Source: Candidatus Methanophagaceae archaeon
Lineage (GTDB): Archaea; Halobacteriota; Syntropharchaeia; Alkanophagales; Methanospirareceae
Assembly: GCA_003194425.1 (NCBI GenBank)
Contig: PQXB01000001.1
Coordinates: forward strand, 100,444 to 132,443
Direction: 5' to 3'
DNA: 32,000 nt
Part shown: one piece after another, positions 1-29,739 of the stretch
Numbering within the stretch: the first letter of the stretch is position 1
How the letters are laid out: each line of letters opens with the position of its first letter
Notes under the pieces: generated by a model
Databases searched by the model: none
What the model saw: only the letters and a program-made list of their open reading frames with translations
Told to the model about the DNA's origin: nothing
Position numbers and translations under genes: made by a program

Positions 1-578
1 CCTGCCAGACTGACGCCACCGTTCGTGCCAACAGGAACTTTTTTTAGCGTTGTGATTAGCCTCGGCTCTCCGCCGTCCGCCTGCCCGATTTCTGTTGAAA
101 ATGTGTCTGCACAGGCGGTAGCGACCGCACCTGAGAAGCCGAGCAGGAAGACGGTCTTTTGAGAGAAGCCGTAAAAAACCGCGAAGACCAGCGGCGACAA
201 GCCGTTGCCAAGCACATTATTTATGTCTCGCATTCCCTTGCTCCCTCCTCCCTTTCCTCCTCCTCCTCCTCCCTTTCCTCCTCCGCTTTCACCGCCTCCT
301 CCTCCGCTTTCACCCCCTCCTCCGCCTTCTGCAACGCCGAGCAGTTCTTTCTTCTCGTACTTGTATTTCGTGACCAAGTTCCCAAAGACGAAGAACGCGA
401 GTAGCAGAAGCAGACCCGCGTAGCCAAACTCGAGCCCCAACGCCAACAAAATCACCACGCCAAGCCCGAGCGTGCCGAGAAACGCGGAGGTGTTTATTTT
501 GCGTTTTAGGTAAGCGTAAAGCACGAGCGAGAACGCTACCAAGACGGTAAGCCCGGTTAGAGTCGCAGTTTCAAACAT
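1..578 (-). CDS. DUF92/TMEM19 (COG1836) family integral membrane protein; C-terminal end lies beyond the window edge
   Basis: Own minus-strand translation from the ATG at 578..576: MFETATLTGLTVLVAFSLVLYAYLKRK...GNLVTKYKYEKK...CADTFSTEIGQADGGEPRLITTLKKVPVGTNGGVSLAG. It stays open to position 1, so it is absent from the ORF track (no stop in window). The start overlaps the upstream gene's stop (ATGTTTGA). It carries a Gly-rich repeat insert, GGGGGESGGGGGESGGGKGGGGGGKGGGSKG. Confidence 0.7.
   Translation of the reverse strand, partial: MFETATLTGLTVLVAFSLVLYAYLKRKINTSAFLGTLGLGVVILLALGLEFGYAGLLLLLAFFVFGNLVTKYKYEKKELLGVAEGGGGGESGGGGGESGGGKGGGGGGKGGGSKGMRDINNVLGNGLSPLVFAVFYGFSQKTVFLLGFSGAVATACADTFSTEIGQADGGEPRLITTLKKVPVGTNGGVSLA
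240..336. repeat. GGN-rich tandem repeats (about 21-bp units) inside the DUF92 gene
   Basis: cctcctccgctttcacc recurs. Encodes GGGGGES x2 and KGGGGGG x2. Confidence 0.8.
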
Positions 579-2115
579 TTTTACACCCCCTCGCAAAAAT
601 CCTGTCAAAAGTCTCTCTCTCAATTTCTTCGAAAAATATCGCCCGTCCGACCTCGCCACGCAGCCGCCTGACCTCGCGTAGTCCCATCGCGCCGAGAACC
701 TCAAGCAGCTGGTTCCGCCACGCACCGACGAGATTTATTATCCGCTGCGCCGCCCACTCGGCGTCCACTTCTTCCAACCCCACCGGACACTTCAGTCCCC
801 GCCCCTTAGCGTTCAGTCCCCCCCCCTTAGCGTTCAGTCCCCGCCCCTTAGCGCACGCTCTGCAGTAGCGGCACTCCAGAGCCAAAAGAAGCGGCAGGTC
901 AACCGCGGTCAAATCAGCACCGCAAATTATTGATTTCGCCACGTGCTCCGCCATTGCGATTCCTCCGCTCACTACGAGCGTTACCTCGTCCCGGATTCTA
1001 CGCTTCACCAAATGTCTGTGAACCTTCAGGGTCAGGTCATTTACAAATAAACTTTTTTCAAAAGTTTGCTGCGAGGTTTGTGCAGCGTTTTTGATCAAAC
1101 TTTTTTTGAAAGTTTGTCCGTTGAGGTCCGCACAAAGGTGAACGACTTCTACGCCTGCGTAGGTCAGTTCTTCCACGATTTCCGCTACTTCCTCGGCGAC
1201 GCTGAAAGGCACTCTCACCGCGACGAGCGTTCCAGGACTTAACCTCTTCGCCTCGCTCACTTCTCTCAAAACGCTTTCTCCACCGCCGTACTCAAATTCC
1301 ACCATTTTGCACACCTTAATCAAATCTTTCAGCGCAGCGTTTTTGGTCAAACTTTTTCTAAAACTTTGCGGCACCAAAAAATCCTTGTAGCCCGCGTTAA
1401 ACCACTCTCCTGCGTCCACAATCATAAAAGTGCCAAGACGAGAGGCAGCCCTCGCCACCGCTTCGTAGACGCTCTTAAACCTACCAAAAGGGAGTGCGTT
1501 AAAATTAAAAATTATCGGAATTGGAACGGTCAGTGTTGGTGGGACAGGAGACGCGATCTTCCCGTTACCGTGGACGTTACCGTGGGTGTTAACGTGGGTG
1601 TTAACGTGGGTGTTAAACTTGAGAGCAGGTAGCTTTCGCCCGACGTCCACTGCGGTGCTGATGTATTCGCGTCCGTGAATCCCGTCCCTCGTGGGTCGCA
1701 CGATTTCTGACATGTCCGTCCACATTGAATCGAAGCCTTCGCCTGAAAACGGTCCTGGGTAGCCCGCGCCAGAGACTGGGATCTTGCCGGTCTCCGCCTG
1801 GTACCAGTTCGTGCTGATTATTTCGGGCGTCCAGTAGGAGTCGCCGAGCAGGGAATATTCTGGGTTTTCACGGATGCTCAACGCCTCTCTCGGACACTCC
1901 TGCACGCAGCGGAAGCAGCCTTTACAGCGGTGTCCTTCGGGTTCTGCCATTTTTCTCGCGTCTTCTTCCCCCCGTTTGTGTACCTCGTAGACGCAAACGC
2001 TGGCACACTTTCCGCAATTTATGCAGCCACTCTCGTCCCGTCTTATCTCAAACTTCCCGATTGGTTTGTAGCGCGGCGGTCTCGGCACGACCGCAACGCT
2101 GTATTTTTTAGGCAT
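571..2115 (-). CDS. Glutamate-synthase-like FMN-domain oxidoreductase with N-terminal 2x[4Fe-4S] ferredoxin domain
   Basis: ORF 571..2154. N-terminal CINCGKCASVC...CKGCFRCVQECP. TDMSEIVRPTRDGIHGRE and VVSGGIAMAEHVAKSIICGADL...ALECRYCRAC...KCPVGL resemble the Glu_synthase FMN domain. The likely true start is the ATG at 2115 (MPKKYSVAV), because the 13 codons upstream are just a palindromic element. Confidence 0.7.
   Translation of the reverse strand: MPKKYSVAVVPRPPRYKPIGKFEIRRDESGCINCGKCASVCVYEVHKRGEEDARKMAEPEGHRCKGCFRCVQECPREALSIRENPEYSLLGDSYWTPEIISTNWYQAETGKIPVSGAGYPGPFSGEGFDSMWTDMSEIVRPTRDGIHGREYISTAVDVGRKLPALKFNTHVNTHVNTHGNVHGNGKIASPVPPTLTVPIPIIFNFNALPFGRFKSVYEAVARAASRLGTFMIVDAGEWFNAGYKDFLVPQSFRKSLTKNAALKDLIKVCKMVEFEYGGGESVLREVSEAKRLSPGTLVAVRVPFSVAEEVAEIVEELTYAGVEVVHLCADLNGQTFKKSLIKNAAQTSQQTFEKSLFVNDLTLKVHRHLVKRRIRDEVTLVVSGGIAMAEHVAKSIICGADLTAVDLPLLLALECRYCRACAKGRGLNAKGGGLNAKGRGLKCPVGLEEVDAEWAAQRIINLVGAWRNQLLEVLGAMGLREVRRLRGEVGRAIFFEEIERETFDRIFARGCKNV
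791..853. repeat. 21 bp x3 tandem repeat inside the GltS-like gene
   Basis: ttcagtccccgccccttagcg x3 (middle unit has 1-2 changes). Encodes GRGLNAK GGGLNAK GRGLK. Confidence 0.95.
1049..1068. repeat. Family-A palindromic element, in-frame in CDS
   Basis: AAACTTTT-TTC-AAAAGTTTG. Translated (minus strand) as QQTFEKSLF. Confidence 0.85.
1082..1116. repeat. Family-A palindromic element (35-bp long form), in-frame in CDS
   Basis: gcagcgtttttgatCAAACTTTttttgAAAGTTTG. Translated as QTFKKSLIKNAA. Confidence 0.9.
1334..1368. repeat. Family-A palindromic element (35-bp long form), in-frame in CDS
   Basis: gcagcgtttttggtCAAACTTTttctaAAACTTTG. Translated as QSFRKSLTKNAA. Confidence 0.9.
1564..1618. 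repeat. 12 bp x4.6 tandem repeat inside the GltS-like gene
   Basis: gttaccgtggac gttaccgtgggt gttaacgtgggt gttaacgtgggt gttaaac. Encodes NTHVNTHVNTHGNVHGN. Confidence 0.95.
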
Positions 2116-2116
2116 T

Positions 2117-2136
2117 AAACTTTTTCTAAAAGTTTG
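2117..2136. repeat. Family-A palindromic element, intercistronic
   Basis: AAACTTTT-TCT-AAAAGTTTG between the stop at 2144 and the ATG at 2115. Confidence 0.85.
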
Positions 2137-2143
2137 ACTAAAA

Positions 2144-4195
2144 CTAATTTTCATAAACGAGCCTCCAGTAGTCTTCGCTCGATTCCAACGCCGCGACGAA
2201 CTCCTTTACCTTCTCCTCCGCCGGCTTGCCAAACCTGTCTTCAAGCAGCTTTTCCAGCTCCGTCCACGCCGCGACGAGGTCAAGGTCGTTCTGACAGACC
2301 TCCCGGCACATCTCACAGTGCGTGCACAAAAAAACCTTGTCCGAGTCGCTTTTCGTTACTTCGCTGCCTGCACCCTTCCCTCTCTCTCTTCTCGTGCCTT
2401 CAAGAAGTTTCTTGGCGAGAAGAAGCTTGTTCTTTGGAATTACTCTCTCCTCGCAGGTAACAAGGTACGCGGGGCAGTTGGCAGCGCAACTCCCACACTT
2501 GACGCAGGAGTAAACCGCTCTTTCAAGCACCGACTCCTCTCTCTGCTCTTTCTTTTTATCTTTCTTTTTAACCTCCTCTTTGGCGGGTAAAAGCAGCGGG
2601 GCAAAGAGCGGCGTAGCCAAAGCCGCAGCACCGACTAACGGTTCGAAGACGAGCGGTTTGAAGACGACTCCGGGGAAGTTCCAGAATTTCGTCCGCACCG
2701 CGAAGAACTTGTTCGGGTTTAAAATCCCCCGCGGGTCGACTTTTTTCTTGTAGGCTTTGAGAGTTTTTAGCGTCGTTCTGCCAAATTTAGCCTTTACGAA
2801 CGGCGTGTTCCAAATTCCGACACCGTAAGGGACGCCGCCGAACTTTAGCCCGAGTCGCGTGAGAGCAGGGACAAGGCTCAGGTGGAGCAGGTAAGTCTTC
2901 GACTCTCGGGCGTCGCACTGGTGCGTTAAAATCAGGAGTGCCTCACCCTCGCCCGTTCCCTTCTGCCCCAAAATGTGTGACTCCGCCTGCAAATCCATTC
3001 CGCACCTCTCTGCCGCCCGCTTCGCTGCTTTAAGAAACGGAACCGCGTTCTCAAGCGGGAGGACGAGTTCACACGCCAGCGGAGTGGGCTTGCTGCCGCT
3101 ACTTCTCTTCATCGGAAAAAGCCGCTCGTGCCAGAGGTAGTTCGCAAGGTGTTCTTCTGCAAGCCTGCCCCGCCGCTGCGTCGCAAACTCGACAAATTTC
3201 GTCGCCTCTTCCTCCTCCTTCTCCTCTTCCTTCCCCTCTTCCTTCCCCTCTTCCTCCTCCCTCTCCTCCTCCCTCTCCTCCTCTCTCTCCTCCTCTCTCT
3301 CCTCCTCCCTCTCTTCCTCCTCCTCAAACTCCACCAACACTGCCTCCTTCACCGCGAACAAATCCTCGCCCAGCACCGCGTTCGCCTCTTCAAGATGCCC
3401 GGCGTCCAAATATTTTATGTGGTAAGGTTTGGGCTTGAAATCCGATTTTACCAAGTCCCGCACAAAATCAAACGCCGCTTCGCAACTCTCAAAATACGCC
3501 AAACGCGGCAGCGACCTTTTCGGCTTCTTTCGCAGTTTCAGGGTCGCAGTCAGAACCAAGCCGAACTGTCCCTCTGTCCCGAAGAACCGCTCAAACTCTG
3601 CTTCGTTTGACTGAAAGGTCTTCACCTCGCCCGACGGGAACAGAACCTCAAGCGACTCCACCTGCTCCTTGAGGTGTCCGAACCTGAAACTTCCTACTCC
3701 GTACCCCCCAGTAGCGACCCAACCGCCGACAGTCGAGAAGAAGCTCGAGGGGTAGGCTCGGAGTGAAAAATCTTCAGACTTCAAAAAGTTCTCGATTTCT
3801 GACCACCTCACGCCTGCTTGGACTTTTAGCGCCCTCCAATTTCCCTCTCTTTCAGATTTCTTTGGTAAAGGTTTCTTTTCTAAAGAAAGGTTTTTCAGGA
3901 GAGAGAAGTCAAGAATGACGCCTTTTACCGTAGGAAGAACGCCGCCGAGCCCGGAAGAAGCCGAGCCTCGTGGGAAGAGTGCCACCCTCTCGGCGTTTGC
4001 GAACCCAACGATTTTTTTTAGTGCGTCAACGCTTTTCGGCTGGACTACGAGTTCCGGAGTAGTCTCAAAGAGCCTGCTTGCGAACGGAACTTCGCCGATG
4101 TCCGTGCTGAAGAGTTCACGCTCGAAGTCGCCCTCCAAAATCCGCCCCTCGTCTCCGACGAGTTCTTTTAGCCTCTCTTTTAACTTCTCCACCAT
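2144..4195 (-). CDS. FAD-linked oxidase (GlcD / D-lactate dehydrogenase-like) fused to a C-terminal 2x[4Fe-4S] (GlpC/HdrD N-terminal-like) domain
   Basis: PCMH-type FAD-binding N-terminus (VVQPKSVDALKKIVGFANAERVALFPRGSASSGLGG). C-terminal CVKCGSCAANCP and CTHCEMCREVC. A long Glu-rich tandem-repeat insert sits mid-protein. Confidence 0.75.
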   Translation of the reverse strand: MVEKLKERLKELVGDEGRILEGDFERELFSTDIGEVPFASRLFETTPELVVQPKSVDALKKIVGFANAERVALFPRGSASSGLGGVLPTVKGVILDFSLLKNLSLEKKPLPKKSEREGNWRALKVQAGVRWSEIENFLKSEDFSLRAYPSSFFSTVGGWVATGGYGVGSFRFGHLKEQVESLEVLFPSGEVKTFQSNEAEFERFFGTEGQFGLVLTATLKLRKKPKRSLPRLAYFESCEAAFDFVRDLVKSDFKPKPYHIKYLDAGHLEEANAVLGEDLFAVKEAVLVEFEEEEEREEEREEEREEEREEEREEEEGKEEGKEEEKEEEEATKFVEFATQRRGRLAEEHLANYLWHERLFPMKRSSGSKPTPLACELVLPLENAVPFLKAAKRAAERCGMDLQAESHILGQKGTGEGEALLILTHQCDARESKTYLLHLSLVPALTRLGLKFGGVPYGVGIWNTPFVKAKFGRTTLKTLKAYKKKVDPRGILNPNKFFAVRTKFWNFPGVVFKPLVFEPLVGAAALATPLFAPLLLPAKEEVKKKDKKKEQREESVLERAVYSCVKCGSCAANCPAYLVTCEERVIPKNKLLLAKKLLEGTRRERGKGAGSEVTKSDSDKVFLCTHCEMCREVCQNDLDLVAAWTELEKLLEDRFGKPAEEKVKEFVAALESSEDYWRLVYEN
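3205..3325. repeat. 12-bp-period GAR-rich repeat tract inside the GlcD-like gene
   Basis: Encodes EEEEEREEEREEEREEEREEEREEEEGKEEGKEEEKEEEE. Confidence 0.9.
3866..3894. repeat. Family-B palindromic element, in-frame in CDS
   Basis: aaaGGTTTCTTTtctAAAGAAAGGttttt. Translated (minus strand) as KNLSLEKKPLP. Confidence 0.8.
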
Positions 4196-5042: not shown

Positions 5043-6698
5043 ATGAAAATTTTGTTGGCAACAGGGAGGAGAGCGGAGGGGGTGGTAAAGAATGCAGTGA
5101 GATCTTTAGACTGCTGCGAGGTTCTTACGCAGGACTTGGGAATTGCCGCCTTCTCGACGCCCAAATCTCTGCGAAACGCACTTGAAAAAAATTTTATTTC
5201 CCCAAAAAATTACGACCTCGTTCTTGTCTCGGGGCTCTGTAAGTCTGATTTTAGCGGTTTAGAGAAAGAGCTCGCCACACCAGTCAGGCTGGGTCCCAGG
5301 CACGCCTACGACCTCGGAGAGGCGTTGCAACTCGCAGGAGCAGGAAAGGGTGTGGAAGCAGGAGAGGGAGAGAGAGAGGGAGTGGGAAAGGGTGAGGGAA
5401 AGGGAGTGGGAGAGGGAGTGGGAGAGGGAGAGAGAGAGGGAGTGGGAAAGGGAGTGAGAGTGGCGTCGTATTTCTCGCCGCTTACGCCTGCGGATTTATT
5501 TTTGGCGGAGAAGAGGCGAGAGAGCGCGAAGAAGCAGTTGGCGGAGTTAGAAAGGAGTGCAAGAGCAGAGTTCAGCGTAAAAGGAGTGAAAATCGGCGGA
5601 GGTGCAAGAATGAAAGTCTGCGCGGAGATTGTGGACGCGACGCTCTTGAGCGAGGAAAAAGTGCAGCGGAGAGCGAGATATTTCGTGGAGTGCGGTGCTG
5701 ACATTCTGGATGTTGGCGTTCATTTGGGTGCGAAGCCGGGCGCGGTGAGGCGGGCGGTAAGAGCGGCTCTTGGCGCCGCCCCCGAAGTCCCTCTCTCGGT
5801 TGACAGTTTAGACGCTGACCTAATTCTCGCAGGCGTCGAAGCCGGCGCCGAGATTGTGCTCAGCCTGAACCGCGAAAACATCGCGAGAGTGGGCAACGAA
5901 GTAGCAGCGAGAGGCGTAGCAGCGGTTGTAGTTCCCGATTTTGACGCACCTCCGAAGAAGAGTAACGAGAGCCTCTTTGAGAACTTAAGGCTGGCGGAGG
6001 AGCACGGCATAAAACGCGTAATCGCCGACCCTGTCTTGAACGCGGTCGGCTACGGAATTGCAGAGTCCCTGCACAACTATTTTCTCTTCAGAGAGCGGGA
6101 CAAAACCACGCCGCTCTTCTTTGGCGTCGGAAATGTCACGGAGTTGTTGGACGCAGACTCGGTGGGCGTGAACGCGGTCTTGGCGGGCGTGGCGTCCGAG
6201 TTGAACGCGGACATTCTTTTTACGCCCGAACACAGCGACAAGGCAAGAGGGAGCGTTAGAGAGTTGCGAGTGGCGTCAGAAATGATGACGCTCTCGAAAG
6301 CACGCTGTGTGGGAGGGGGCGGGAGCGCCCCAAAAGATGTTGGACTCGACCTCTTGGTCTTGAAAGAGAAGCGAAGCCACCCACCAAAGCAACTTCAGGA
6401 CAAAGACGAGCGGGGGGTTGTTCTCGCGAGCGGGGACGAGCAGTGGCGGCTTGACCCCAAGGGGTGCTTTAGAATCGGCGTCTGTGAAGTGGAGGGTAAG
6501 CGGAAAATTTATGCAAAACACACGCCAAGCGGGAGGAAAGTAGTAGGCGGAACTGCGAAGGAGGTTGCAGAAACAATCTTGCGGTTGGGTCTGGTCTCCC
6601 TGCTCGAGCACGCCGCTTACTTGAGTGCTGAGTTGACGAAGGCTGAACTCGCACTGCGGTTGGACAGGAGTTACGAGCAGGACGAGGTGCTATTTTAA
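5043..6698 (+). CDS. Dihydropteroate-synthase-like pterin-binding protein (archaeal MJ0107-type, with extra N- and C-terminal domains)
   Basis: DHPS-like motifs: YFVECGADILDVGV, PLSVDSLDADLILAGVEAGAEIVLSLN, VIADPVLNAVGYG. The C-terminal ~100 aa resemble DUF4346. A Gly/Glu-rich repeat insert lies near aa 100-140. Confidence 0.65.
   Translation: MKILLATGRRAEGVVKNAVRSLDCCEVLTQDLGIAAFSTPKSLRNALEKNFISPKNYDLVLVSGLCKSDFSGLEKELATPVRLGPRHAYDLGEALQLAGAGKGVEAGEGEREGVGKGEGKGVGEGVGEGEREGVGKGVRVASYFSPLTPADLFLAEKRRESAKKQLAELERSARAEFSVKGVKIGGGARMKVCAEIVDATLLSEEKVQRRARYFVECGADILDVGVHLGAKPGAVRRAVRAALGAAPEVPLSVDSLDADLILAGVEAGAEIVLSLNRENIARVGNEVAARGVAAVVVPDFDAPPKKSNESLFENLRLAEEHGIKRVIADPVLNAVGYGIAESLHNYFLFRERDKTTPLFFGVGNVTELLDADSVGVNAVLAGVASELNADILFTPEHSDKARGSVRELRVASEMMTLSKARCVGGGGSAPKDVGLDLLVLKEKRSHPPKQLQDKDERGVVLASGDEQWRLDPKGCFRIGVCEVEGKRKIYAKHTPSGRKVVGGTAKEVAETILRLGLVSLLEHAAYLSAELTKAELALRLDRSYEQDEVLF
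5361..5452. repeat. 60-bp-period repeat with 12-bp subrepeats inside the DHPS-like gene
   Basis: ggagagggagagagagagggagtgggaaaggg occurs at 5361 and 5421. Encodes GEGEREGVGKG..GEGEREGVGKG. Confidence 0.9.
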
Positions 6699-7147
6699 AA
6701 TCTGCCTCTACCTCCACCTCTTCTACCTCCACCTCTGCCACCGCCTCGTCCGCTTCCGACACCTCCAACGCCACTGCCGAGAGCCTGTCCTGAATGAGCC
6801 GGGACAGTCGGAGCCTCTGCTGCTTTATTTAGACCGCCGCTTTTGTACTTCTCGACTACTTCTTTCACCGTGCCGAACGCCCCAGTCGCGATTTTAACGC
6901 CTGCTGCGGAGAGCACTTGAAAAGCGTTAGGACCAACATTCCCTGTAACAAGCACCTCTGCATTTTTATTCACGACTGTCTCCGCTGCCTGTATTCCTGC
7001 TCCTCCGGGTGCGTTAAAGGCTTCGTTTGGCATCGCCTCGAAATCCGTCGTCTCCGAGTCAACGAAGACGAAATATTTGCACCTTCCAAACCTCGGGTCT
7101 ACCTCTGCACTCAAATCCCCCGCTACTGCAGTTACGCATATTTTCAT
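6695..7147 (-). CDS. NifX/NifB-C-terminal-like (dinitrogenase FeMo-cofactor-binding fold, MTH1175-type) protein with an Arg/Gly-rich tail
   Basis: MKICVTA...VDPRFGRCKYFVFVDSET...GGAGIQAAETVVNKNAEVLVTGNVGPNAFQVLSAAGVKI is typical of PF02579-type proteins. The C-terminus is GSGVGGVGSGRGGGRGGGRRGGGRGRF. Confidence 0.75.
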   Translation of the reverse strand: MKICVTAVAGDLSAEVDPRFGRCKYFVFVDSETTDFEAMPNEAFNAPGGAGIQAAETVVNKNAEVLVTGNVGPNAFQVLSAAGVKIATGAFGTVKEVVEKYKSGGLNKAAEAPTVPAHSGQALGSGVGGVGSGRGGGRGGGRRGGGRGRF

Positions 7148-7238
7148 TTTTTCTTTCTCCTTTCCTTTCTCTTCTCCTTTTTCCTCTTTTTCCTGATTTT
7201 TATTTTACCGTGCGTATTTATTTCTTACTACCTCGCTC

Positions 7239-7286
7239 TATAAAATGGTTTATAAAATGGTTTATAAAATGGTTTATAAAATGGTT
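7239..7286. repeat. 12 bp x4 perfect intergenic tandem repeat
   Basis: tataaaatggtt x4. The minus-strand reading is aaccattttata. Confidence 0.95.
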
Positions 7287-7287
7287 T

Positions 7288-7329
7288 AATTTTTAATTTT
7301 TCATTTTTAATTTTTAATTTTTAATTTTT
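7288..7329. repeat. 7 bp x6 tandem repeat spanning the purA stop codon
   Basis: aattttt x6 (one unit is cattttt). Encodes the purA C-terminal EKLKIKN*. Confidence 0.95.
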
Positions 7330-8332
7330 CACCCCGCAAATCCACAATCTCTGAGACCTCGGGACCAGTAGAAATCAACTTCACAGGCACTCGCGTGTCC
7401 TGCTCTACCCGCTGCACGAAATCCCGAACCTCCCTGCTCAACTCGCCGTACTCCCGCACACCCCTGCACGAGGGGTCTAACTTGTCCACGCCGCTAAGAG
7501 CCACTGTAGTCGCGCCGTTAATCATCGCGGAGTAAGCCGCCATTTTTCCGTCCCAAACGCCAATTCGCCGTTTCCTGCCTGTAACCGTGCCAAACTCCTC
7601 GATCTGCAGTTCCGCAGCCTTCGCCTCTGCCATTTGCGTCTCGAACGGACCTTCGCCGACCCGCGTCGGAAACGACTTGAAGACCACGACGACCTCGTCC
7701 ACCCTCGTCGGACCCAGCCCCACATCAGCAGCCATCTGCGAGGCGGTCGTGTCTTTGGAGGTGACGAAAGGGTAAGTGCCGTAGAGCAGAGAAATGCCGA
7801 ACCCTTGCGTGCCTTCCACCAGCACTCCTTTCCCGCGCTCCAACGCCCCGTTTATTTCTGCAGGCACGTCGCAAACAAACTCCTGCAACTCCTCCAAGTC
7901 CTTCGCCTGCCTCGCTGTTCGGAGTGCACGAGCCGCGTTCGCAGGACCGCAGCCGGACCCGGTAGAGCCGATTTTCCCTTTTAAGTGGGCGTTCTTCGTG
8001 TCCTCCTCAATGTGCTGCAGCTCAATTATTCCGCACCGCCTGTCCACGCCGACTCTGCCTTCCAGCCCAAACGAAGCCACCTCTCGCCTTAAAACCCGCG
8101 GGTCAACCAACACCCCAGAGCCGATCAGAAGCCTCGCCGACTCCTGCACAAACCCTGACGGCACCATTCTTAACGCGTACTTCTTCCCCTCAACCTCTAC
8201 TGTGTGTCCTGCGTTTGGTCCTACGCCGCCCCTCGCAACCACCTCGGGCTTGTCGTGCCTTGCGAGGTACGCGATGATTTTTCCCTTTCCCTCGTCCCCA
8301 AAAAAGCCACCTACTAAAATTGTCGCTGGCAT
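7307..8332 (-). CDS. purA: Adenylosuccinate synthetase (short archaeal type)
   Basis: N-terminal [20 protein letters not shown], then GPNAGHTV and [10 protein letters not shown]. Length is 341 aa. Confidence 0.93.
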
Positions 8333-8472: not shown

Positions 8473-9522
8473 ATGAATCCGGAATTAAAAGGGAATGCGG
8501 GAAGAGGAAAAAGGGAGAGAGAAACGGGAAGAGGAAAAAGGGAGAGAGAAAGGGAGAGAGAAAGGGAGAGAGGGAGGAGAGAAGGAGGAGAGAAGGAGGA
8601 GGATTTTGATGTGGTGCTCGTGGGCGATGTGTTCTACGACATTGCCACAACTCCACTCCGCGACTACCCAGAGCGAGACAAGCAGCTGGGCTGCGGATTT
8701 ATGCTCAGCGTGGGCGGTCAAGCCGGGAACTGCGCTGCTGCCTGTGCTTCTTTGGGCTTGAGAACCGCTCTTGTTTGCAAGACCGGAGGGGGCGTGCTTT
8801 CAAAATGGGTAACAGCGGAGTTGCAAAAGTTGGGCGTTCGCTGCTTCGCAGGGAAGGAGAGGTGCGAGAGCAGGAGAGAGGTGGGAATAACGGTGAGCGT
8901 AGCCTTTGAAGACGGTAGCAGGTCGATGCTGACCGAGAGGGGAGCGAATTTGGAGCTTACTGCGGCGGATTTGGATTTCGAACTCCTGAAGAGAACAAGG
9001 TTCTTGGGGCGTGCAGGACACTGGAACACCGAGGGTCTCTTTACCGCAAACAAGAAAATACTGGAGTTCGCAAAGTCCGCAGGGGCTTGCACTGGCGTGG
9101 ATTTGGGCTGGAGTGCTTACCTCGGCTGGACGGCGTCGGCAAGAGAGACCGTCTTTGAGTTCCTGCCTTTTACTGACTTCCTGTTTGTGAACGAGGCGGA
9201 GGTAAAAGGCTTGAGCGGGAAGGCGGAAGGCGGGAAAGCAGGAGGAGGGGAAGCAGGAGGAGGGGGAGGAGAGCGTGAGTTGTTAGAGAGGGGGTGCGGA
9301 AATGTGATTATTCACAGAGGTGCGAAGGGCTCGTCGTGGGTGAGCAGGGATTTTGAGGTGAGCTGCCCCGCGTTTAAAGTGCAGCCGAGACGCCCGACTG
9401 GCGCTGGGGACGTTTTCAACGCGGGTTTTATTTACGCCTTCTTGGCAGGGAAGCAGGCGAAGGAGTGCTTAAGATTCGCTAACTCCTGCGCTGCAAGACA
9501 CTTGACAGGAACTTTTTTTTAA
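8473..9522 (+). CDS. PfkB-family carbohydrate/nucleoside kinase (start uncertain; the first ~45 codons are tandem-repeat sequence)
   Basis: DVVLVGDVFYD... and the C-terminal PTGAGDVFNAGFIYAFLAG motif. The conserved fold seems to begin near 8605-8615 (a GTG candidate). A GGKAGGGEAGGGGGE insert is also present. Confidence 0.8.
   Translation: MNPELKGNAGRGKRERETGRGKRERERERERERGRREGGEKEEDFDVVLVGDVFYDIATTPLRDYPERDKQLGCGFMLSVGGQAGNCAAACASLGLRTALVCKTGGGVLSKWVTAELQKLGVRCFAGKERCESRREVGITVSVAFEDGSRSMLTERGANLELTAADLDFELLKRTRFLGRAGHWNTEGLFTANKKILEFAKSAGACTGVDLGWSAYLGWTASARETVFEFLPFTDFLFVNEAEVKGLSGKAEGGKAGGGEAGGGGGERELLERGCGNVIIHRGAKGSSWVSRDFEVSCPAFKVQPRRPTGAGDVFNAGFIYAFLAGKQAKECLRFANSCAARHLTGTFF
8498..8563. 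repeat. 27 bp x2 plus nested 12-bp repeats at the 5' end of the pfkB-family ORF
   Basis: cgggaagaggaaaaagggagagagaaa x2, then gggagagagaaa. Confidence 0.9.
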
Positions 9523-9547
9523 CTTTTCTTTAGAAAAGAAAACTTTA
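9522..9547. repeat. Family-B palindromic element, begins at the pfkB stop codon
   Basis: aacTTTTCTTTagaAAAGAAAActtt. Confidence 0.75.
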
Positions 9548-9560
9548 CTAAAGAATCTTT

Positions 9561-9589
9561 TTTTTGATCAAACTTTTTCTAAAAGTTTG
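9561..9589. repeat. Family-A palindromic element, intergenic / overlapping the annotated TTG start of pdaD
   Basis: tttttgatCAAACTTTttctaAAAGTTTG. Same long-form left flank as the intragenic copies. Confidence 0.9.
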
Positions 9590-10099
9590 TTGGAGAGGGG
9601 AAAATTGAGACCAAGAGCGTTCTTCGTTACTTCGGGTGTAGGAATTGACAGCGAGCAGGCGAACGCCTTTGACCTCGCTTTATGCGACGCTGGCATCGGA
9701 GAGTGCAACCTGGTCGAGGTCTCCTCGATTCTTCCCGCGGCGGCGGTGGAGACAGAGCGGGAGAGGGAGAAGCTGACACCCGGCGAAATAACTTTCTGCG
9801 TGCTCTCAAGGGCGGACGGTAAGTCAGGCGAGGTCGTCGGCGCTGGGGTGGGCTACGGCTGGATTGGAGGGAGGCGAGAAGGAGAAGGGCAGGAAGAAGA
9901 GAGAGACTTTGGAATTATTTGCGAGCACCACGGTCATTTTCCAACCGCGTTTCTGAATAAAAAAATAGAGGAGAAGTTGCACAAAATGGCTGCGATTCGC
10001 GGTAAAAAAATCGCAGGCACGAAGTTAGAAGCAAAAGCGGTAGAGGTAGCGGACGGTAAATTCGGGTCGGTTGTCGTGGCGCTGGTTTTTGTGTTTTGA
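9587..10099 (+). CDS. pdaD: Pyruvoyl-dependent arginine decarboxylase
   Basis: FFVTSGVGIDSEQANAFDLALCDAGIGECNLVEVSSILP contains the Ser-Ser self-cleavage site context. The ORF-track start is a TTG, so the exact start is uncertain. Confidence 0.88.
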   Translation: MLERGKLRPRAFFVTSGVGIDSEQANAFDLALCDAGIGECNLVEVSSILPAAAVETEREREKLTPGEITFCVLSRADGKSGEVVGAGVGYGWIGGRREGEGQEEERDFGIICEHHGHFPTAFLNKKIEEKLHKMAAIRGKKIAGTKLEAKAVEVADGKFGSVVVALVFVF

Positions 10100-13779: not shown

Positions 13780-13805
13780 TTTACTTCTCTCTCTCCCTCC
13801 CCTCT

Positions 13806-13880
13806 TGCCTTCATTCCTCCTGCCTTCATTTCTCCTGCCTTCATTTCTCCTGCCTTCATTTCTCCTGCCTTCATTCCTCC
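13806..13880. repeat. 15 bp x5 tandem repeat filling the hdrC-hdrB spacer
   Basis: tgccttcatt(c/t)ctcc x5. Confidence 0.95.
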
Positions 13881-13895
13881 TTCTTCCCTTCTCCT

Positions 13896-14498
13896 TCACC
13901 CCTCGGAAAATTCCGCAAAAATCTTCTTCACCACCGCCCTGTCCTTCACTTTCTCCGGGAACATCGCCTTCGGTCCCATTTTTCCCTTCTTGAACATCCG
14001 CATCCCGAAGTCCTTGTAATCCTTTGACATCGTCAGCAACCCCTTAAAGAACGAACCGCCCTCCTTGCCCTTGTAATATTCCATCGCCAGCCCCATATCG
14101 TAGAGCCGTCCGTACTTCGCCAACTGGTGCTCAAAAGCCTTGTCAAAGAGCGGGCGGTGGCTCTCGATTTTCAGCCTCCCCGCTTTCTCCTCTTTCTCTG
14201 CCACTCGTCTTATCGCGGAGAGCAGGTCGGCAATCCGCACATCCTGCGGGCACCGCGCCGTGCAGGTCTGACAAATTAGGCAGATCCACAAGTCCGGGTT
14301 CGACAAGACCTCGTCCCGCATCCCCAACAAACTCATCTGAATGATTTTTCGCGGGTTGTAAGTAGCCACGATTTCAGTGAGCGGGCAGCCCAGGGTGCAG
14401 GTGCTACACTGAAAGCACTTGGTCAGGTTCTCGCCTCCGGGCTCGCTCATTATTTCGTCCTTGAACCCAGAGTCCAATTCCCAGGTTTTTATCGCCAT
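13896..14498 (-). CDS. hdrC: Heterodisulfide reductase subunit C
   Basis: CFQCSTCTLGCP and CLICQTCTARCP. The ATG at 14498 gives MAIKTWELD. The track ORF extends to a GTG at 14585 through a 24-bp x3.4 repeat (GEERRGER x3). Confidence 0.9.
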   Translation of the reverse strand: MAIKTWELDSGFKDEIMSEPGGENLTKCFQCSTCTLGCPLTEIVATYNPRKIIQMSLLGMRDEVLSNPDLWICLICQTCTARCPQDVRIADLLSAIRRVAEKEEKAGRLKIESHRPLFDKAFEHQLAKYGRLYDMGLAMEYYKGKEGGSFFKGLLTMSKDYKDFGMRMFKKGKMGPKAMFPEKVKDRAVVKKIFAEFSEG

Positions 14499-14503
14499 TT
14501 TTT

Positions 14504-14584
14504 CTCCTCGCTCTCCTCTCCTTTCTTCTCCTCGCTCTCCTCTCCTTTCTTCTCCTCGCTCTCCTCTCCTTTCTTCTCCTCGCA
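14504..14584. repeat. 24 bp x3.4 tandem repeat filling the spacer upstream of hdrC
   Basis: ctcctcgctctcctctcctttctt x3 plus a partial unit. Confidence 0.95.
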
Positions 14585-14595
14585 CCTCACACCTC

Positions 14596-16274: not shown

Positions 16275-17975
16275 TTATTTCACACTATATAAACTTTGCG
16301 ATTTTTTGCTGTGCTCCAATTTCTCTACCCTAACATCGACGTAGGGCAGATTTCCAGACAGGACACGCACTGTCCCGCCTCCGCTGCCCTCCTCCTGCGT
16401 TACGACTGCGTGTCCGCTCCCCTCACTCCTGCTCCCCTCACTCCTGCTCCCCTCACTCCCGCTCCCCCCTCCCTTGACGGTAGCCGAGCTTTGAGCAAGT
16501 TTTACTGGGTTGCTTGAATTGTCGTTGTGAATGCAGACGAAATTGACGACGACGCCCTCGACCGGTCTGCCCGCGGTGTCGTTCACCCACACGGTTATTT
16601 TCCCTGCTTCGTAGCTGGCGCGGAGTGAGACAGGCGGGTTGAAATTTTGGCTTGCAGGGACAGAAATATTCCCTGAAATTTGGCTTAATTTGGCGACCAT
16701 TCCCGTGTCGTCGGTTACTTTGAGGTCGATTAAGACGGCTTCACCAGGTACTGGATTTATTCCTTCGAGTCCTGCCCGCACCTTCTTTCCTGTCTGGTAG
16801 TGCGCGGTTTCGCCGCCACCCACTCTTGAGTCGTTGTAGTAAACCGTCCAGTTGAACTCAGTGACAAAACCGTCGGGGTCCGGGTCGTAAGATTCCGAAG
16901 CGTCCAGCACCAAAAAATCCCGAAACACTACTCCTAAGTCCTCGGTAACTACCTGCACCCGAGCAACCGGCACCGGCGGTGCGAACGCGTCCGCGAAATT
17001 GCTGCCCAGCCCGGTTATCAAAAGCGTCTCGATTGGGTCAGTGGTCTTGAGGTGCACGGGACTGCCGCCAAAGTCAGTGAGCAAGTTAATCCGCAGGGAA
17101 GCGGTAGAACGCGGCGGCATTGTGTAGGGGTGCGCCCGAGTGAAGACCGCTTTGCCCTTGCTCGTGGGTGAAAAGACCGAGTAAGTGCGTGCAAAGTGGT
17201 TTTTGACTGCGACCTCTTTTAGCGTGGTCTTGCGAATGTTTAGGTTTCGTGCTGCGAGCTCGACCTCGCCCCAGTAGGACGGGTTTGAGAATTTGATGTC
17301 GTCGAGGTAAATTGTAGTGTCGTCGCGTTTTAGTGTGAACCGCAGTTCGCTGAACTCCGACTCAGAGCCGAGGGAGAAGGAGGTTGTGTTTTTCTGCCAC
17401 TTGTTTTTGGCTGGAAAATTTATTGGAACTCTCTCCCCGTTCAGCGAAACCTCGACCACCCCGTCCCCTGCGAGACTGCTCTTTACCCTGAAACTCAACT
17501 CAACCTCCTCCCCGCTGGATTGAAAAGGCACGAAAGATTTGTTAATGAATTCGTCGGCGTCGCCCGTAACTTTGAAGGCATATTTTGATTTTTTCCCCTC
17601 CTCTCCCTCTACCTCGCACGCCTCTCCCCCTACCTCGCACGCAACGACCTCCATCGTTTCGGTCGTGTTGCGCCAGCCGGAGTAAGGGTAGTCCCTGCTG
17701 AGCGTCCAGTAGCAGTTTTGAGTTCCGTAATTTTTGAAGACGCTCACGCCCTCGAAGTCGTCAATGCAGGCTGCAGGGTAGAGTGATATTTTGGTAATCT
17801 CAAGCTCTTCGAGTTCAATCGCGGTCGTGTGACTCTCCTTTTCCGCGATGTCTTGCTGAAGACTTGTAACAATGTACGCGACCGAGGTTGCGGCGGTGAC
17901 CGTGATTATTATGAGCAGCATTGCCCCGACAATCACGCTTGTCCCGCTGGTACCCTTAACGAAAGGGGATTTCAT
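16275..17975 (-). CDS. Surface protein with archaeal class III (type IV pilin-like) signal peptide and a PKD-like domain
   Basis: N-terminus MKSPFVKGTSGTSVIVGAMLLIIITVTAATSVAYIV. Internal LDASESYDPDPDGFVTEFNWTVYYND is PKD-like. A C-terminal GSRSE repeat is present. Confidence 0.55.
   Translation of the reverse strand: MKSPFVKGTSGTSVIVGAMLLIIITVTAATSVAYIVTSLQQDIAEKESHTTAIELEELEITKISLYPAACIDDFEGVSVFKNYGTQNCYWTLSRDYPYSGWRNTTETMEVVACEVGGEACEVEGEEGKKSKYAFKVTGDADEFINKSFVPFQSSGEEVELSFRVKSSLAGDGVVEVSLNGERVPINFPAKNKWQKNTTSFSLGSESEFSELRFTLKRDDTTIYLDDIKFSNPSYWGEVELAARNLNIRKTTLKEVAVKNHFARTYSVFSPTSKGKAVFTRAHPYTMPPRSTASLRINLLTDFGGSPVHLKTTDPIETLLITGLGSNFADAFAPPVPVARVQVVTEDLGVVFRDFLVLDASESYDPDPDGFVTEFNWTVYYNDSRVGGGETAHYQTGKKVRAGLEGINPVPGEAVLIDLKVTDDTGMVAKLSQISGNISVPASQNFNPPVSLRASYEAGKITVWVNDTAGRPVEGVVVNFVCIHNDNSSNPVKLAQSSATVKGGGSGSEGSRSEGSRSEGSGHAVVTQEEGSGGGTVRVLSGNLPYVDVRVEKLEHSKKSQSLYSVK
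16416..16473. repeat. 15 bp x3.8 tandem repeat inside the pilin-like gene
   Basis: gctcccctcactcct x3 plus a partial unit. Encodes GSRSEGSRSEGS. Confidence 0.95.
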
Positions 17976-19198: not shown

Positions 19199-19284
19199 CT
19201 TAAACCTTTCTTTAGAAAAGAGAGTTTTATCAAAACAAAAAAATAAAAAGAGGGCTCAGTTGTTGCTGAGCCCCTCGAGTTCGG
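19199..19284. repeat. Copy L of ~85-bp double-hairpin unit (AT-rich palindrome + A-run + GGCTCAGTTGTTGCTGAGCC hairpin)
   Basis: Almost identical to 21093..21177, with a few mismatches or indels by eye. Related to 22195..22275. Confidence 0.85.
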
Positions 19285-21082: not shown

Positions 21083-21092
21083 TAAAACTTTC

Positions 21093-21177
21093 TTAAAACC
21101 TTTCTTTGAAAAGAAAGTTTTATCAAAACAAAAAAATAAAAAGAAGGCTCAGTTGTTGCTGAGCCCCTCGAGTTCGG
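21093..21177. repeat. Copy M of ~85-bp double-hairpin unit
   Basis: cttaaaacctttctttgaaaagaaagttttatcaaaacaaaaaaataaaaagaaggctcagttgttgctgagcccctcgagttcgg. Homology to the 22.2-23.0 kb region resumes through 21340. Confidence 0.85.
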
Positions 21178-21786: not shown

Positions 21787-22226
21787 ACACAAATGTGTTG
21801 GTGGCTTTCTTGGATAAAGAACATCCAGACAATCCGAAGACAAAAATATTAGCAGCGCATCAATATCTCGCAGTAAATCCAACTATTATCCACGAAGCCT
21901 TTCACACATTGGTTTACAAGCAAAAATGGAAGCGAGAAGATGCAAAAAATATACTGACCGATTACACGGATTTGGATACAATATTATTCTTGAATCAAAC
22001 GAAGGAAATCACAAAATTAGGATTAGAAGTAGGAGTAAAATATAAAATAGGAGGTAGGGACGCTTTGATATTGGCTAACTTCCTTTTTAATTCAGTGGGG
22101 AGGATGATAACATTTGATAAGGAGCTATTAGAGGTTAAGGAGCTCCTGATAAAAGGAAAGAGGTTAGAGATATTTCTACCATCTTTTATCAAAGAAACCT
22201 TTCTTTACAAAAGAAAGCTTTACTAA
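21747..22226 (+). CDS. vapC: PIN-domain ribonuclease toxin
   Basis: LGVDTNVLVAFL (first Asp), IIHEAFH (Glu), GGRDALILANF and ITFDKEL (Asp residues). The start may instead be the TTG at 21777. The last ~12 codons are encoded by a palindromic element. Confidence 0.8.
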   Translation: MGDGKRDKEYLGVDTNVLVAFLDKEHPDNPKTKILAAHQYLAVNPTIIHEAFHTLVYKQKWKREDAKNILTDYTDLDTILFLNQTKEITKLGLEVGVKYKIGGRDALILANFLFNSVGRMITFDKELLEVKELLIKGKRLEIFLPSFIKETFLYKRKLY

Positions 22227-22275
22227 AGAAAAAAAAATAAAAAAGGACTCAGTTGTTGCTGAGCCCCTCAAGTTC
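22195..22275. repeat. Copy R (more diverged) of the double-hairpin unit
   Basis: aaagaaacctttctttacaaaagaaagctttactaaagaaaaaaaaataaaaaaggactcagttgttgctgagcccctcaagttc. Confidence 0.75.
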
Positions 22276-28629: not shown

Positions 28630-29739
28630 TCAAAAGAGAAAGTGTGCCAGCAACTCTTCCAAGTGAATGATTGGATTCAAGGAATTGCAGAGTTTGAAAT
28701 CCGCTTCGGCTTCGTGCAGCACGAGTTTGGCGAACCACCGTGCCTCTTCTTCTCCTCGCTCTTCTTCTCCTCGCTCTTCTTCCCCTCGCTCTTCTTCCCC
28801 TCGCTCTTCTTCTCCTTGCCCTTCCCTCGCCAACCGCCTTCGCAACGCCTCGTGCACCTCTGCCAGCACCTCTTTCGCCCCGACCCGCTCGTCTTTTATC
28901 AGAGCCTCCAAGCCCTCCCGCACTTTTTTACGCCTCCCCCTAAACGCCGAATCTAACAACTCCTCTGCCTCCTTTCTCTGAAGAAACGCATTCTGCACCA
29001 CTTCTTTTATTCTGCCCTCGCCGATCGTTTTTGCCTCCGCTGCTGCTGCAGCGGCTGCAGCCGCTTCCAGAATATTTATGCCCGCACCTGCGTCGCCTCT
29101 CGCGAACTGCTTCAGCGTCTTTAAAGCCCCTACTGTAAGTTTTAGCCCCTCTGCTTCGGCGATTTCCGCGAGCAGTGCGTCCAACGCACCGGTCTTGTCC
29201 AAAGCCGTAAAGTGAAGGTTCAAGCACCGCGACCTCACTGCTGGTACGACGCTAGCAGGTTTGGAGGTGGCGAAAATGAACCTGCAGGTTTTGTTGCTCC
29301 GTTCCATCACCCGCCGCAGAGCCTGCTGCAGATTTAGAGGCAGAAGGTCGGCGCTGCTGAAGAAGAGCAATTTGAAACTCGCATTTGCACTTACAGGCGA
29401 CAGCACGGCGTACTCCCGCACCACCGCCTTAAAAATGTCAATCGCAGATTTCTGCTCGTCGTAAAAGAACCTGAACCTCTTCTCCTCTTTCAGCCATTTC
29501 TTCCGCTGCTCAACGAAGTCCGAGCATTCAATGTGTAGCAGGTTTAGGAGGCTCGCGTCGTCGCCGTAAAGCCCCCTCGCCACTGCGTAAACCAGCGAAG
29601 TCTTACCGCTCCCTTTTGGACCCCAAAGCAAGAGGTTCGGGAGGGTCTTTTCCTTGACAAACCCTTTTAACTGCTTCACTACCTCTGCCTGCCCCGCTAT
29701 CTCGTCCAACTGTCTCGGTCGGTATTTTTCAACCCACAT
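28630..29739 (-). CDS. rfcS: Replication factor C small-subunit-like AAA+ clamp-loader protein (divergent)
   Basis: WVEKYRPRQLDEIAGQ, Walker A GPKGSGKT, and the SRC motif VRSRCLNLHF. The Walker B position reads FFSSAD instead of DEAD. An EERGE x4-5 repeat is inserted near the C-terminus. Confidence 0.8.
   Translation of the reverse strand: MWVEKYRPRQLDEIAGQAEVVKQLKGFVKEKTLPNLLLWGPKGSGKTSLVYAVARGLYGDDASLLNLLHIECSDFVEQRKKWLKEEKRFRFFYDEQKSAIDIFKAVVREYAVLSPVSANASFKLLFFSSADLLPLNLQQALRRVMERSNKTCRFIFATSKPASVVPAVRSRCLNLHFTALDKTGALDALLAEIAEAEGLKLTVGALKTLKQFARGDAGAGINILEAAAAAAAAAEAKTIGEGRIKEVVQNAFLQRKEAEELLDSAFRGRRKKVREGLEALIKDERVGAKEVLAEVHEALRRRLAREGQGEEERGEEERGEEERGEEERGEEEARWFAKLVLHEAEADFKLCNSLNPIIHLEELLAHFLF
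28745..28815. repeat. 15 bp x4.7 tandem repeat inside the RFC gene
   Basis: tcgctcttcttc(t/c)cc units. Encodes EERGE repeats. Confidence 0.95.

Follow-up and report, generated by a model that had tools for sequence, protein, structure and literature searches.

Why should one short, A/T-rich palindrome lie three times, in frame and free of stop codons, inside a conserved archaeal enzyme gene, and again between genes nearby? The question arises from a 32,000-nt stretch of contig PQXB01000001.1 (positions 100,444 to 132,443; hereafter the window) of an ANME-1 (anaerobic methanotrophic archaea; Methanophagales) genome, where an earlier note, made from the letters alone, had pointed out the repeats in a gene for a glutamate-synthase-like (GltS-like) protein. 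With a probability of roughly 65%, we read these copies as belonging to a family of non-autonomous hairpin repeats, very short at 36 or 39 nt, which behave as selfish or neutral DNA and colonised ANME-1 genomes. Genic copies most likely add a loop of 12-13 residues to enzymes, and the element would be an archaeal parallel, apparently undescribed, to the Rickettsia palindromic elements (RPEs).

If as many as 3 mismatches are allowed, the 21-nt sequence CAAACTTTTTCTAAAAGTTTG is matched five times in the window by copies of CAAACTTTT-N3-AAAAGTTTG, all in the same orientation on the + strand (Table 1), compared with 0/100 dinucleotide-preserving shuffles containing a match. The exact gapped pattern matches only the copy at 9569-9589, and a looser pattern of the arms alone adds one weak match at 21085. 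These are the places named in the earlier note, whose coordinates and translations were right to within one base; the starts it gave at 1049 and 2117 belong to real copies but are one base short (1048 and 2116), because the first base there is T, not C. Three copies are translated in one frame inside the GltS-like open reading frame (ORF), as QSFRKSLTKNAA, QTFKKSLIKNAA and QQTFEKSLF, and two are intergenic, both as claimed. The contrast between an AT-rich element and GC-rich coding sequence also stands: window elements are 25-36% GC, with a GC content at third codon positions (GC3) of 0.27, against 53.5% GC and a GC3 of 0.62 in the remainder of the gene. Compared with the window at third codon positions, two orthologues (L001 and L004) have an identity of 0.66-0.69 within the element and of 0.51-0.53 over the rest of the gene.

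The full unit is longer than the 21-35 nt first proposed. Defined on the coding strand from seven orthologous loci and at least about 120 metagenomic contigs, it consists of an 8-9-bp A/T-rich hairpin, C-AAACTTT(T)-purine-rich loop-(A)AAAGTTT-G, and, after it, a tail of 17 nt, ATCAAAA(A)YGCTTCGCAR, and measures 36 or 39 nt. The core and the shared left flank gcagcgtttttg(a/g)tc of the original description are real, and the flank corresponds to the 3' tail of the element in reverse complement. The 39-nt form reads QTF[KR]KSLIKNASQ, one codon longer than the 36-nt form, which reads QTLRKFDQNASQ; the source of the difference is that one base of each hairpin arm and one A of the tail are missing from the shorter form, whose frame is displaced after the first deletion and recovered inside the unit. 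Tandem 36+39 and 39+36 dimers in direct orientation are common, and the copy at 1048, at first counted on its own, is better described as the hairpin-only second unit of a tandem pair. Two of three frames had been said to be stop-free in both orientations, which is true of the 21-nt core; once the tail is counted, GTT TGA and TAG/TAA stops close two of the sense frames and leave a single one open, and in the antisense orientation of the full unit two frames are open. The hairpin plus GATCAAAA makes up a 27-nt core, C-AAACTTTT-N2-5-AAAAGTTT-G-ATCAAAA, that also occurs outside ANME-1, in archaea and bacteria (below).

Orthologues of the host gene indicate insertion rather than ancestral sequence. 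Presence/absence and copy number vary among ANME-1 orthologues: in seven loci (the window and six other assemblies) the element or pieces of it sit at four different loops in varying combinations, ranging from no unit or a partial one to as many as three. Orthologues labelled Methanocellales or 'Methanomicrobia', and bacterial ones, lack the element. Site 0 is filled in L002 only, by one antisense unit (42 nt in L002 versus cggtttgag in the closest empty allele, L251). At site 1, the window and L249 have one unit, L001 has a 36+39 dimer, and in L004, L002, L250 and L251 the place is taken by another sequence, rich in His, to which none of the element patterns applies. Site 2 is empty in L249 (RASNSSEPC, resembling the outgroup loop) and holds a hairpin only in L251, one full unit in L250, two full units in L002, and hairpin-tail-hairpin in the window, L001 and L004. 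Site 3 is empty in L249 and L250, contains one to two units in L001, L004 and L002, and is taken up in the window by an unrelated GC-rich tandem repeat; L251 has only a tail there (ggtCAAAATGCTCCGCAGccg), a remnant that deletion between the TCAAA direct repeats of hairpin foot and tail would leave. Filled and empty sites at the four loops show no target-site duplication, and the original loop tends to be replaced, which corrects the initial picture of residues simply added. Nor do the insertions look recent: sites 1 and 2 are occupied in most ANME-1 lineages, and the insertions are therefore old or recurrent.

The family extends well beyond this gene. Scanning metagenomes with a tail-specific pattern yielded at least 120 contigs, all of them chosen for containing the element, and these were pooled with the ANME-type loci already collected; together with the six other ANME-1 assemblies they place the element far outside the one locus. 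Among 160 copies in this census, 68 lie in long ORFs, 71 are intergenic and 21 are too close to a contig end to classify, so that genic and intergenic copies are about equally frequent (49% of classifiable copies are in long ORFs). The two length classes cover 66/68 genic and 61/71 intergenic copies. Hosts include PurL at the same site in three genomes (one unit in L007, two or more in L060 and L236), GlmS (two copies), PheRS-beta, an NAD-dependent epimerase, a subtilase, MG2-domain proteins, TraB, DUF2298 and a Tn3 transposase. In loci not chosen for the element, density outside the GltS-like gene is about 1 copy per 15-20 kb, and the GltS-like gene alone has 1-5 copies. Some contigs with the ANME-1-type unit and full tail are binned elsewhere (L060 as Nitrosotalea sp.; L007, L018 and L069 as Methanosarcinales), the unit lying inside purL in L007 and L060; these four may belong to ANME-1, their taxonomic labels being coarse or wrong.

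Orientation separates the process of insertion from what happens afterwards. Genic copies are in the sense frame in 58 cases and in the two antisense frames in 10, although the open frames alone predict 1:2 (P = 1e-18, binomial test); a conservative merge of copies with similar flanks leaves 23:9 (P = 9e-6). Between co-directional genes the numbers are 16 sense and 12 antisense, showing no bias, and intergenic copies have no preferred distance to gene ends. The sense bias therefore comes from selection inside genes, not from insertion. We propose that new copies would insert in either orientation regardless of genes, and that purifying selection within genes would leave only frame-preserving, stop-free copies. 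The open sense frame would supply a basic, hydrophilic segment of 12-13 residues, QT[FL][KR]K(SLIKN|FDQN)ASQ, tolerable in surface beta-alpha loops. Antisense copies would instead bring T5-T8 tracts and more hydrophobic peptides into a gene, which may be why they are rare there; such tracts are archaeal termination signals.

Alternatively, selection might act on the protein, the peptide being a short linear motif or linker (QTFKKSLIKNASQ) spread by recombination, with the DNA palindrome incidental. The peptide is indeed hydrophilic, conserved and placed in loops, and the SLIKN and FDQN readings both regain the same frame. We nevertheless consider this explanation very improbable: intergenic copies of the same DNA are as numerous as genic ones, antisense genic copies encode the unrelated peptides AKHFDQTFLKFD and LRSVLIKLFKSL, it is the nucleotide sequence that is conserved, down to third positions and the complementarity of the arms, and the core is present in noncoding repeats of other phyla.

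The inserts might also never reach the protein if a bulge-helix-bulge (BHB) or other small intron were removed from the mRNA. Transfer RNA introns of DPANN archaea hold the same core (L011, L033), and two inverted modules bound a D-loop intron in a Micrarchaeota genome. In the ANME-1 genes, by contrast, the unit ends (CAAAC... and ...GCTTCGCAG) are not complementary and cannot form a 4-bp helix with two 3-nt bulges, judged by inspection and by minimum-free-energy folds, which show the internal hairpin only. Stop-free frames and in-frame lengths would be needless in excised RNA, and partial units (hairpin only, tail only) are in frame too. BHB excision of genic copies was accordingly rejected, and we hold any removal from the mRNA to be highly unlikely; lengths in multiples of three, the exclusive use of stop-free frames and the missing BHB pairing point to translation, the outcome that the earlier note had left to be decided against splicing.

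The host protein appears able to accommodate such loops. It has 514 residues, with an N-terminal 2x[4Fe-4S] ferredoxin (Fer4 families) and a glutamate-synthase-type flavin mononucleotide (FMN) TIM barrel (PF01645). The window protein matches PF01645 at E = 2e-10, a score weakened by the inserts, and almost all listed orthologues have PF01645 as a precomputed annotation. Its closest relatives are 60-98% identical and, where the source names them, mostly labelled ANME-1 or Methanophagales. An AlphaFold (AF2) model built from 83 homologues (mean predicted local distance difference test score, pLDDT, 74.5; a 24-sequence model with mean pLDDT 56 was discarded) gives a confident FMN-type barrel, for which Foldseek matches glycolate/lactate oxidases and the GltS structures 1OFD and 7MFM. 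Mapped onto this model, the inserts fall in lower-confidence loops of the otherwise confident barrel: residues 250-262 lie between strand 247-251 and helix 260-268 (pLDDT 81 versus 94-95 in the flanks), and residues 334-357, a unit plus a hairpin-only unit, form coil between strand 324-328 and helix 358-371 (pLDDT 49-74 versus about 95 on either side). In the model, these positions match the expectation for tolerated loop insertions in a beta-alpha barrel. Translated inserts would give junction peptides such as ...HLCADLNGQTFK, SLIKNAAQTSQQTFEK and VIGQTLGK. The family's invariant residues are all intact, and the gene is therefore no pseudogene. The unrelated GRGLNAK repeat at residues ~424-441, which holds the site 3 loop where other ANME-1 have the hairpin element, is modelled with low confidence as well.

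Could the hairpin instead be a structured nucleic acid signal kept by selection, such as a protein-binding hairpin, a terminator or promoter module or a site for RNA stability or processing, with genic copies representing that signal within coding sequence? Several observations fit. Perfect-stem variant hairpins adjoin the tail in 20 cases, several of them changed on both arms, compared with 0-3 non-canonical hairpins in controls, so that paired changes maintain the hairpin; at orthologous sites the element withstands the GC pressure of its host; conservation of the 27-nt core reaches across very distant lineages; some copies lie directly upstream of start codons or of tRNA position +1; and the reverse orientation contains T5-T8 tracts. 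Yet the RNA hairpin is weak, at about -6 kcal/mol at 37 C, and on its own indistinguishable from shuffles, which argues against a strong structural role. Intergenic copies moreover lack a preferred orientation or distance to neighbouring genes, about half of the classifiable copies are within unrelated ORFs, copy number at a single site varies freely among orthologues, and Rfam searches of the window and 18 loci, at gathering and permissive thresholds, returned only tRNAs and no family for the element. A promoter or terminator role of the intergenic copies was rejected for want of any orientation or distance pattern, and we regard a selected signal in general as unlikely.

Still less credible, in our judgement, is that the copies are immobile, as remnants of local, microsatellite-like expansion or artefacts of assembling a repeat-rich genome. 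The window is rich in other in-frame tandem repeats (EEREEE, NTHV, GRGLNAK), and single sites commonly show tandem units and changes in copy number. Near-identical units nevertheless occur at many unlinked loci in independent assemblies (ENA, JGI, NCBI) and as dispersed single copies in unrelated genes, and one genome with the core is that of an isolate, Methanobrevibacter curvatus DSM 11111.

If the units are mobile hairpin repeats, as we favour, established ones might multiply or shrink by slippage, producing tandem 36+39 dimers and hairpin-only or tail-only remnants, and their A/T-rich, hairpin-competent state might be kept by turnover and gene conversion among copies or by constraint on the hairpin. 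The paired stem changes noted above count in favour of this reading as well. The copying step is the most speculative part of the scheme. A hairpin with a conserved single-stranded 3' tail and no target duplication resembles the substrate layout of HUH/Y1 single-strand transposases (IS200/IS605 TnpA, or the REP-associated tyrosine transposases, RAYT), REP being the repetitive extragenic palindromic sequences; loop replacement and the GTTTGA microhomology at site 0 would be explained equally well by break repair templated on an ectopic unit. The tail also bears some likeness to Hin/hix half-sites (TTATCAAAAACC), the right-end TCAA of IS608 and the 5' end of bacterial 16S rRNA (AGTTTGATCA); all three strings are too short and A/T-rich to serve as evidence and were not used. 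A viral origin was rejected, IMG/VR giving only 5 matches.

Several results weigh against mobile, selfish or neutral repeats. When 1,829 ORFs lying no more than 2.5 kb from modules were clustered all against all, no mobilising enzyme emerged, the clusters consisting only of ABC transporters, TPR proteins and host genes, and ORFs between inverted module pairs are ordinary genes with no transposase among them. No clean empty/filled pair between near-identical strains was obtained, and recent mobility is thus not demonstrated. The element stays A/T-rich and hairpin-competent at shared sites across lineages only ~73% identical, and its retention there could mean selection for function rather than parasitism. 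Because intergenic copies already have in-frame lengths, the multiple-of-three property does not stem purely from selection within genes. In the census, a gene can be counted more than once, from different samples. Finally, that the inserts are translated we infer from reading frames; solved structures do not contain the peptide, and a search of 5.8 billion proteins was uninformative, giving only 48 candidates, all short fragments.

Table 1. Positions of the hairpin element, its host gene and other repeats in the window, and of coordinate-defined modules on other contigs (own coordinates)
Feature	Position	Strand	21-nt match (mismatches)	Details
Host gene	571..2115	-		within ORF 571..2154 (-)
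Site 1, 39-nt unit	1330..1368	-	1348-1368 (1, in one arm)	CAAAGTTTTAGAAAAAGTTTG+ACCAAAAACGCTGCGCTG -> QSFRKSLTKNAAL, residues 250-262
Site 2, first unit, 39 nt	1078..1116	-	1096-1116 (2)	CAAACTTTCAAAAAAAGTTTG+ATCAAAAACGCTGCACAA -> QTFKKSLIKNAAQ, residues 334-346
Site 2, second unit, hairpin only, tail absent	1048..1068	-	1048-1068 (3)	CAAACTTTTGAAAAAAGTTTA -> QTFEKSL, residues 351-357
Intergenic copy, hairpin only	2116..2136	-	2116-2136 (1)	sense relative to operon
Intergenic copy	9561..9589	-	9569-9589 (0)	perfect 21-nt core + degenerate tail GATCAAAAAAAA
Family B, genic	3853-3887			in frame in FAD-oxidase gene 2144-4195 (-), translated KNLSLEKKPLPKKSE
Family B, intergenic	9521-9555			
Family B, intergenic	19203-19237			
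Family B, intergenic	21096-21130			
Family B, intergenic	22196-22230			
G+C-rich tandem repeats, in frame in ordinary genes	791-854; 1563-1617; 3205-3330			
Further G+C-rich tandem repeats	241-330; 5340-5470; 13790-13900; 14490-14590; 16415-16475; 28740-28830			
DPANN L011, tRNA	6056-6170			module 6106-6132 inside intron
DPANN L033, tRNA	691-813			module 749-775 inside intron
L010 (Oscillospiraceae MAG)	7000-7330			two bacterial-type units head to head

The start of the host gene is set at 2115, not at the ORF's 2154, because every orthologue begins MPKKY. The first intergenic copy fills the 28-nt spacer between the stop (2144) of the upstream gene, which encodes a flavin adenine dinucleotide (FAD)-linked oxidase with a C-terminal Fe-S domain, and the host-gene ATG (2115..2113). 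In a near-identical (98%) cluster, P0001, gene calls begin at an upstream ATG and translate this copy (window 2116-2154) as MKISFSQTFRKSL; the element therefore creates a spurious N-terminal extension in public protein sets. The second intergenic copy lies between a PfkB-family kinase gene (ending at 9522) and pdaD, for pyruvoyl arginine decarboxylase (ribosome-binding site GGAGAGGGG, TTG at 9606), with its T-rich face on the locally transcribed strand. The host gene lies in a nitrogen-assimilation cluster; orthologous loci have as neighbours glnA, further glutamate-synthase-domain genes (PF01645, GATase/GXGXG) and carbamoyl-phosphate synthase.

The 27-nt core has a much wider distribution than the full unit. 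A scan of one genome per species for AAACTTT-N3-5-AAAGTTTGAYCAAAA found at least 119 stretches, against about 0.4 expected at uniform base composition. It reaches beyond archaea, into Clostridia and Aminicenantes. In Clostridia it stands behind G+C-rich hairpins in many gut metagenome-assembled genomes (MAGs), at loci that are truly bacterial (UvrC, MnmG). The Aminicenantes cold-seep MAG CSMAG_1899 (L009, L013, L066, L070 and others) has more than 25 copies in intergenic composite tandem arrays with ~133 nt spacing and three G+C-rich hairpins, where a tail-like ATCAAAAGCGCT resembles the ANME-1 tail. Methanosarcinales and 'Methanobacteriota' MAGs (including L108, where the arrays are intergenic) have tandem units with a 64-nt period, and carriers in Methanobrevibacter include the isolate mentioned above. 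In one Oscillospiraceae MAG (L010), the two units form a ~300-nt inverted duplication whose similarity reaches ~40 nt past the core on the outer sides.

In DPANN archaea the core is tied to tRNA genes, with introns at canonical 37/38, D-loop and T-loop positions. Modules lie inside introns in L011 and L033, a pair of inverted modules bounds the D-loop intron of L109, and two modules sit in a T-loop insert in L096. In L038 and L072, 5' fragments of the tRNA are repeated upstream of the intact gene with a module after each, and in L029 and L119 the module abuts tRNA position +1; modules on DPANN contigs also abut the tRNA 3' end. It is possible, although we think it rather doubtful, that the 27-nt core is one cross-domain, horizontally spread mobile hairpin module served by a conserved trans-acting enzyme. 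Its form would then be set by host tolerance, as loop inserts in ANME-1, as tRNA introns and flanking insertions in DPANN, and as REP-like arrays in Clostridia and Aminicenantes. If homologous, the core would link three seemingly separate phenomena and point to a mobilising activity; such a module would be a new class of minimal mobile element, with tRNA introns and protein loop insertions derived from the same parasite.

The window contains other repeats (Table 1). A second family, B (AAACCTTTCTTT-AGA-AAAGAAAGGTTT, often with a TTTTGATAAAAC box), looks like a longer-stem relative of the hairpin element; three of its copies follow the terminators of three paralogous genes ending ...PELEGLSNN. 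In-frame G+C-rich tandem repeats in ordinary genes are abundant, among them GRGLNAK x3 and NTHV/NVHG in the GltS-like gene and EEREEE... in the FAD oxidase, and tandem-repeat copy number differs between the window and the 98%-identical cluster P0001.

Until now, textbooks have presented selfish DNA lying in frame within housekeeping genes as a peculiarity of Rickettsia. A much smaller counterpart spanning a whole order of environmentally important archaea would mean that the phenomenon is not tied to reductive intracellular genomes. Many enzymes with an insert of 12-13 residues, and units down to one hairpin, would amount to a natural experiment on loop tolerance. For work on ANME-1 the consequences are practical: inserts lower Pfam scores, mislead gene callers (the MKISFSQTFRKSL extension) and add variable alignment columns that affect phylogenies.

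Known mobile elements resemble the unit only in part. Elements derived from IS200/IS605 have subterminal hairpins at both ends, insert 3' of a fixed tetra- or pentanucleotide and have TnpA/TnpB in the genome. The ANME-1 unit has a single hairpin and a 3' tail, its 5' flanks are often GG(T/A) but not fixed, and no TnpA/TnpB was seen in the 2-20 kb around each copy. Mobile archaeal tRNA introns offer another comparison, intron gain by transposition being known in Thermoproteales. The DPANN tRNA introns hold the same hairpin+GATCAAAA core; in contrast, the ANME-1 protein-gene copies lack a BHB motif and are constrained as coding sequence, and the core is also found in bacteria, which lack the BHB splicing endonuclease.

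Transposable elements of the miniature inverted-repeat kind (MITEs) with in-frame copies, such as Correia/NEMIS, ERIC and Coxiella QMITE1, are likewise small, non-autonomous and sometimes fused in frame with ORFs. They have terminal inverted repeats at both ends, target-site duplications and typically more than 100 bp, none of which applies to the ANME-1 unit, and a classical MITE was rejected because the four sites lack target-site duplications and the ends CAAAC... and ...GCTTCGCAG are not inverted repeats. The archaeal MITEs of Sulfolobus, Halobacterium, Haloquadratum and Desulfurococcus are of the classical type (PMC10969869). Like REPs and REPINs (paired REPs), the unit is a 20-40-nt imperfect palindrome, non-autonomous and present in many copies, as singlets and clusters, with stems preserved by paired changes and no target-site duplication. 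REPs are, however, extragenic by definition, usually G+C-rich and marked by a GTAG or CGTC tag at one end (PMC3733652), whereas the ANME-1 unit is A/T-rich, has half of its classifiable copies within genes, bears a 3' tail rather than a 5' tag, and forms direct tandems where REPINs are inverted. Its consensus has no GTAG/CGTC tag, and no RAYT/Y1 or other recurring transposase lies within the 2-20 kb examined per copy.

We found no description of the element in the full-text papers searched, including two large ANME-1 comparative-genomics papers, and a full-text search for the literal sequence and peptide strings turned up only a coincidental primer. The archaeal cases given in a 2024 review of prokaryotic MITEs include none of this kind (PMC10969869). 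The same review describes RPEs as palindromic, interspersed repeats found intergenically and in frame in many unrelated housekeeping genes, where read-through gives additional peptide stretches that suit the host fold, and with no associated transposase known (PMC10969869). The precedent proposed in the earlier note thus holds functionally, RPEs being the closest known system: both are palindromic repeats that occur in frame in unrelated genes as well as between genes, with no known transposase. RPEs are ~100-150 bp long and encode tens of residues, whereas the ANME-1 unit, a third to a quarter of that size, has two length classes one codon apart and is commonly tandem. RPEs are confined to Rickettsia, obligate intracellular bacteria; the ANME-1 family inhabits free-living, syntrophic archaea and its core crosses domains. 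By size, which is incompatible, and by host, the ANME-1 unit is set apart from the RPE families.

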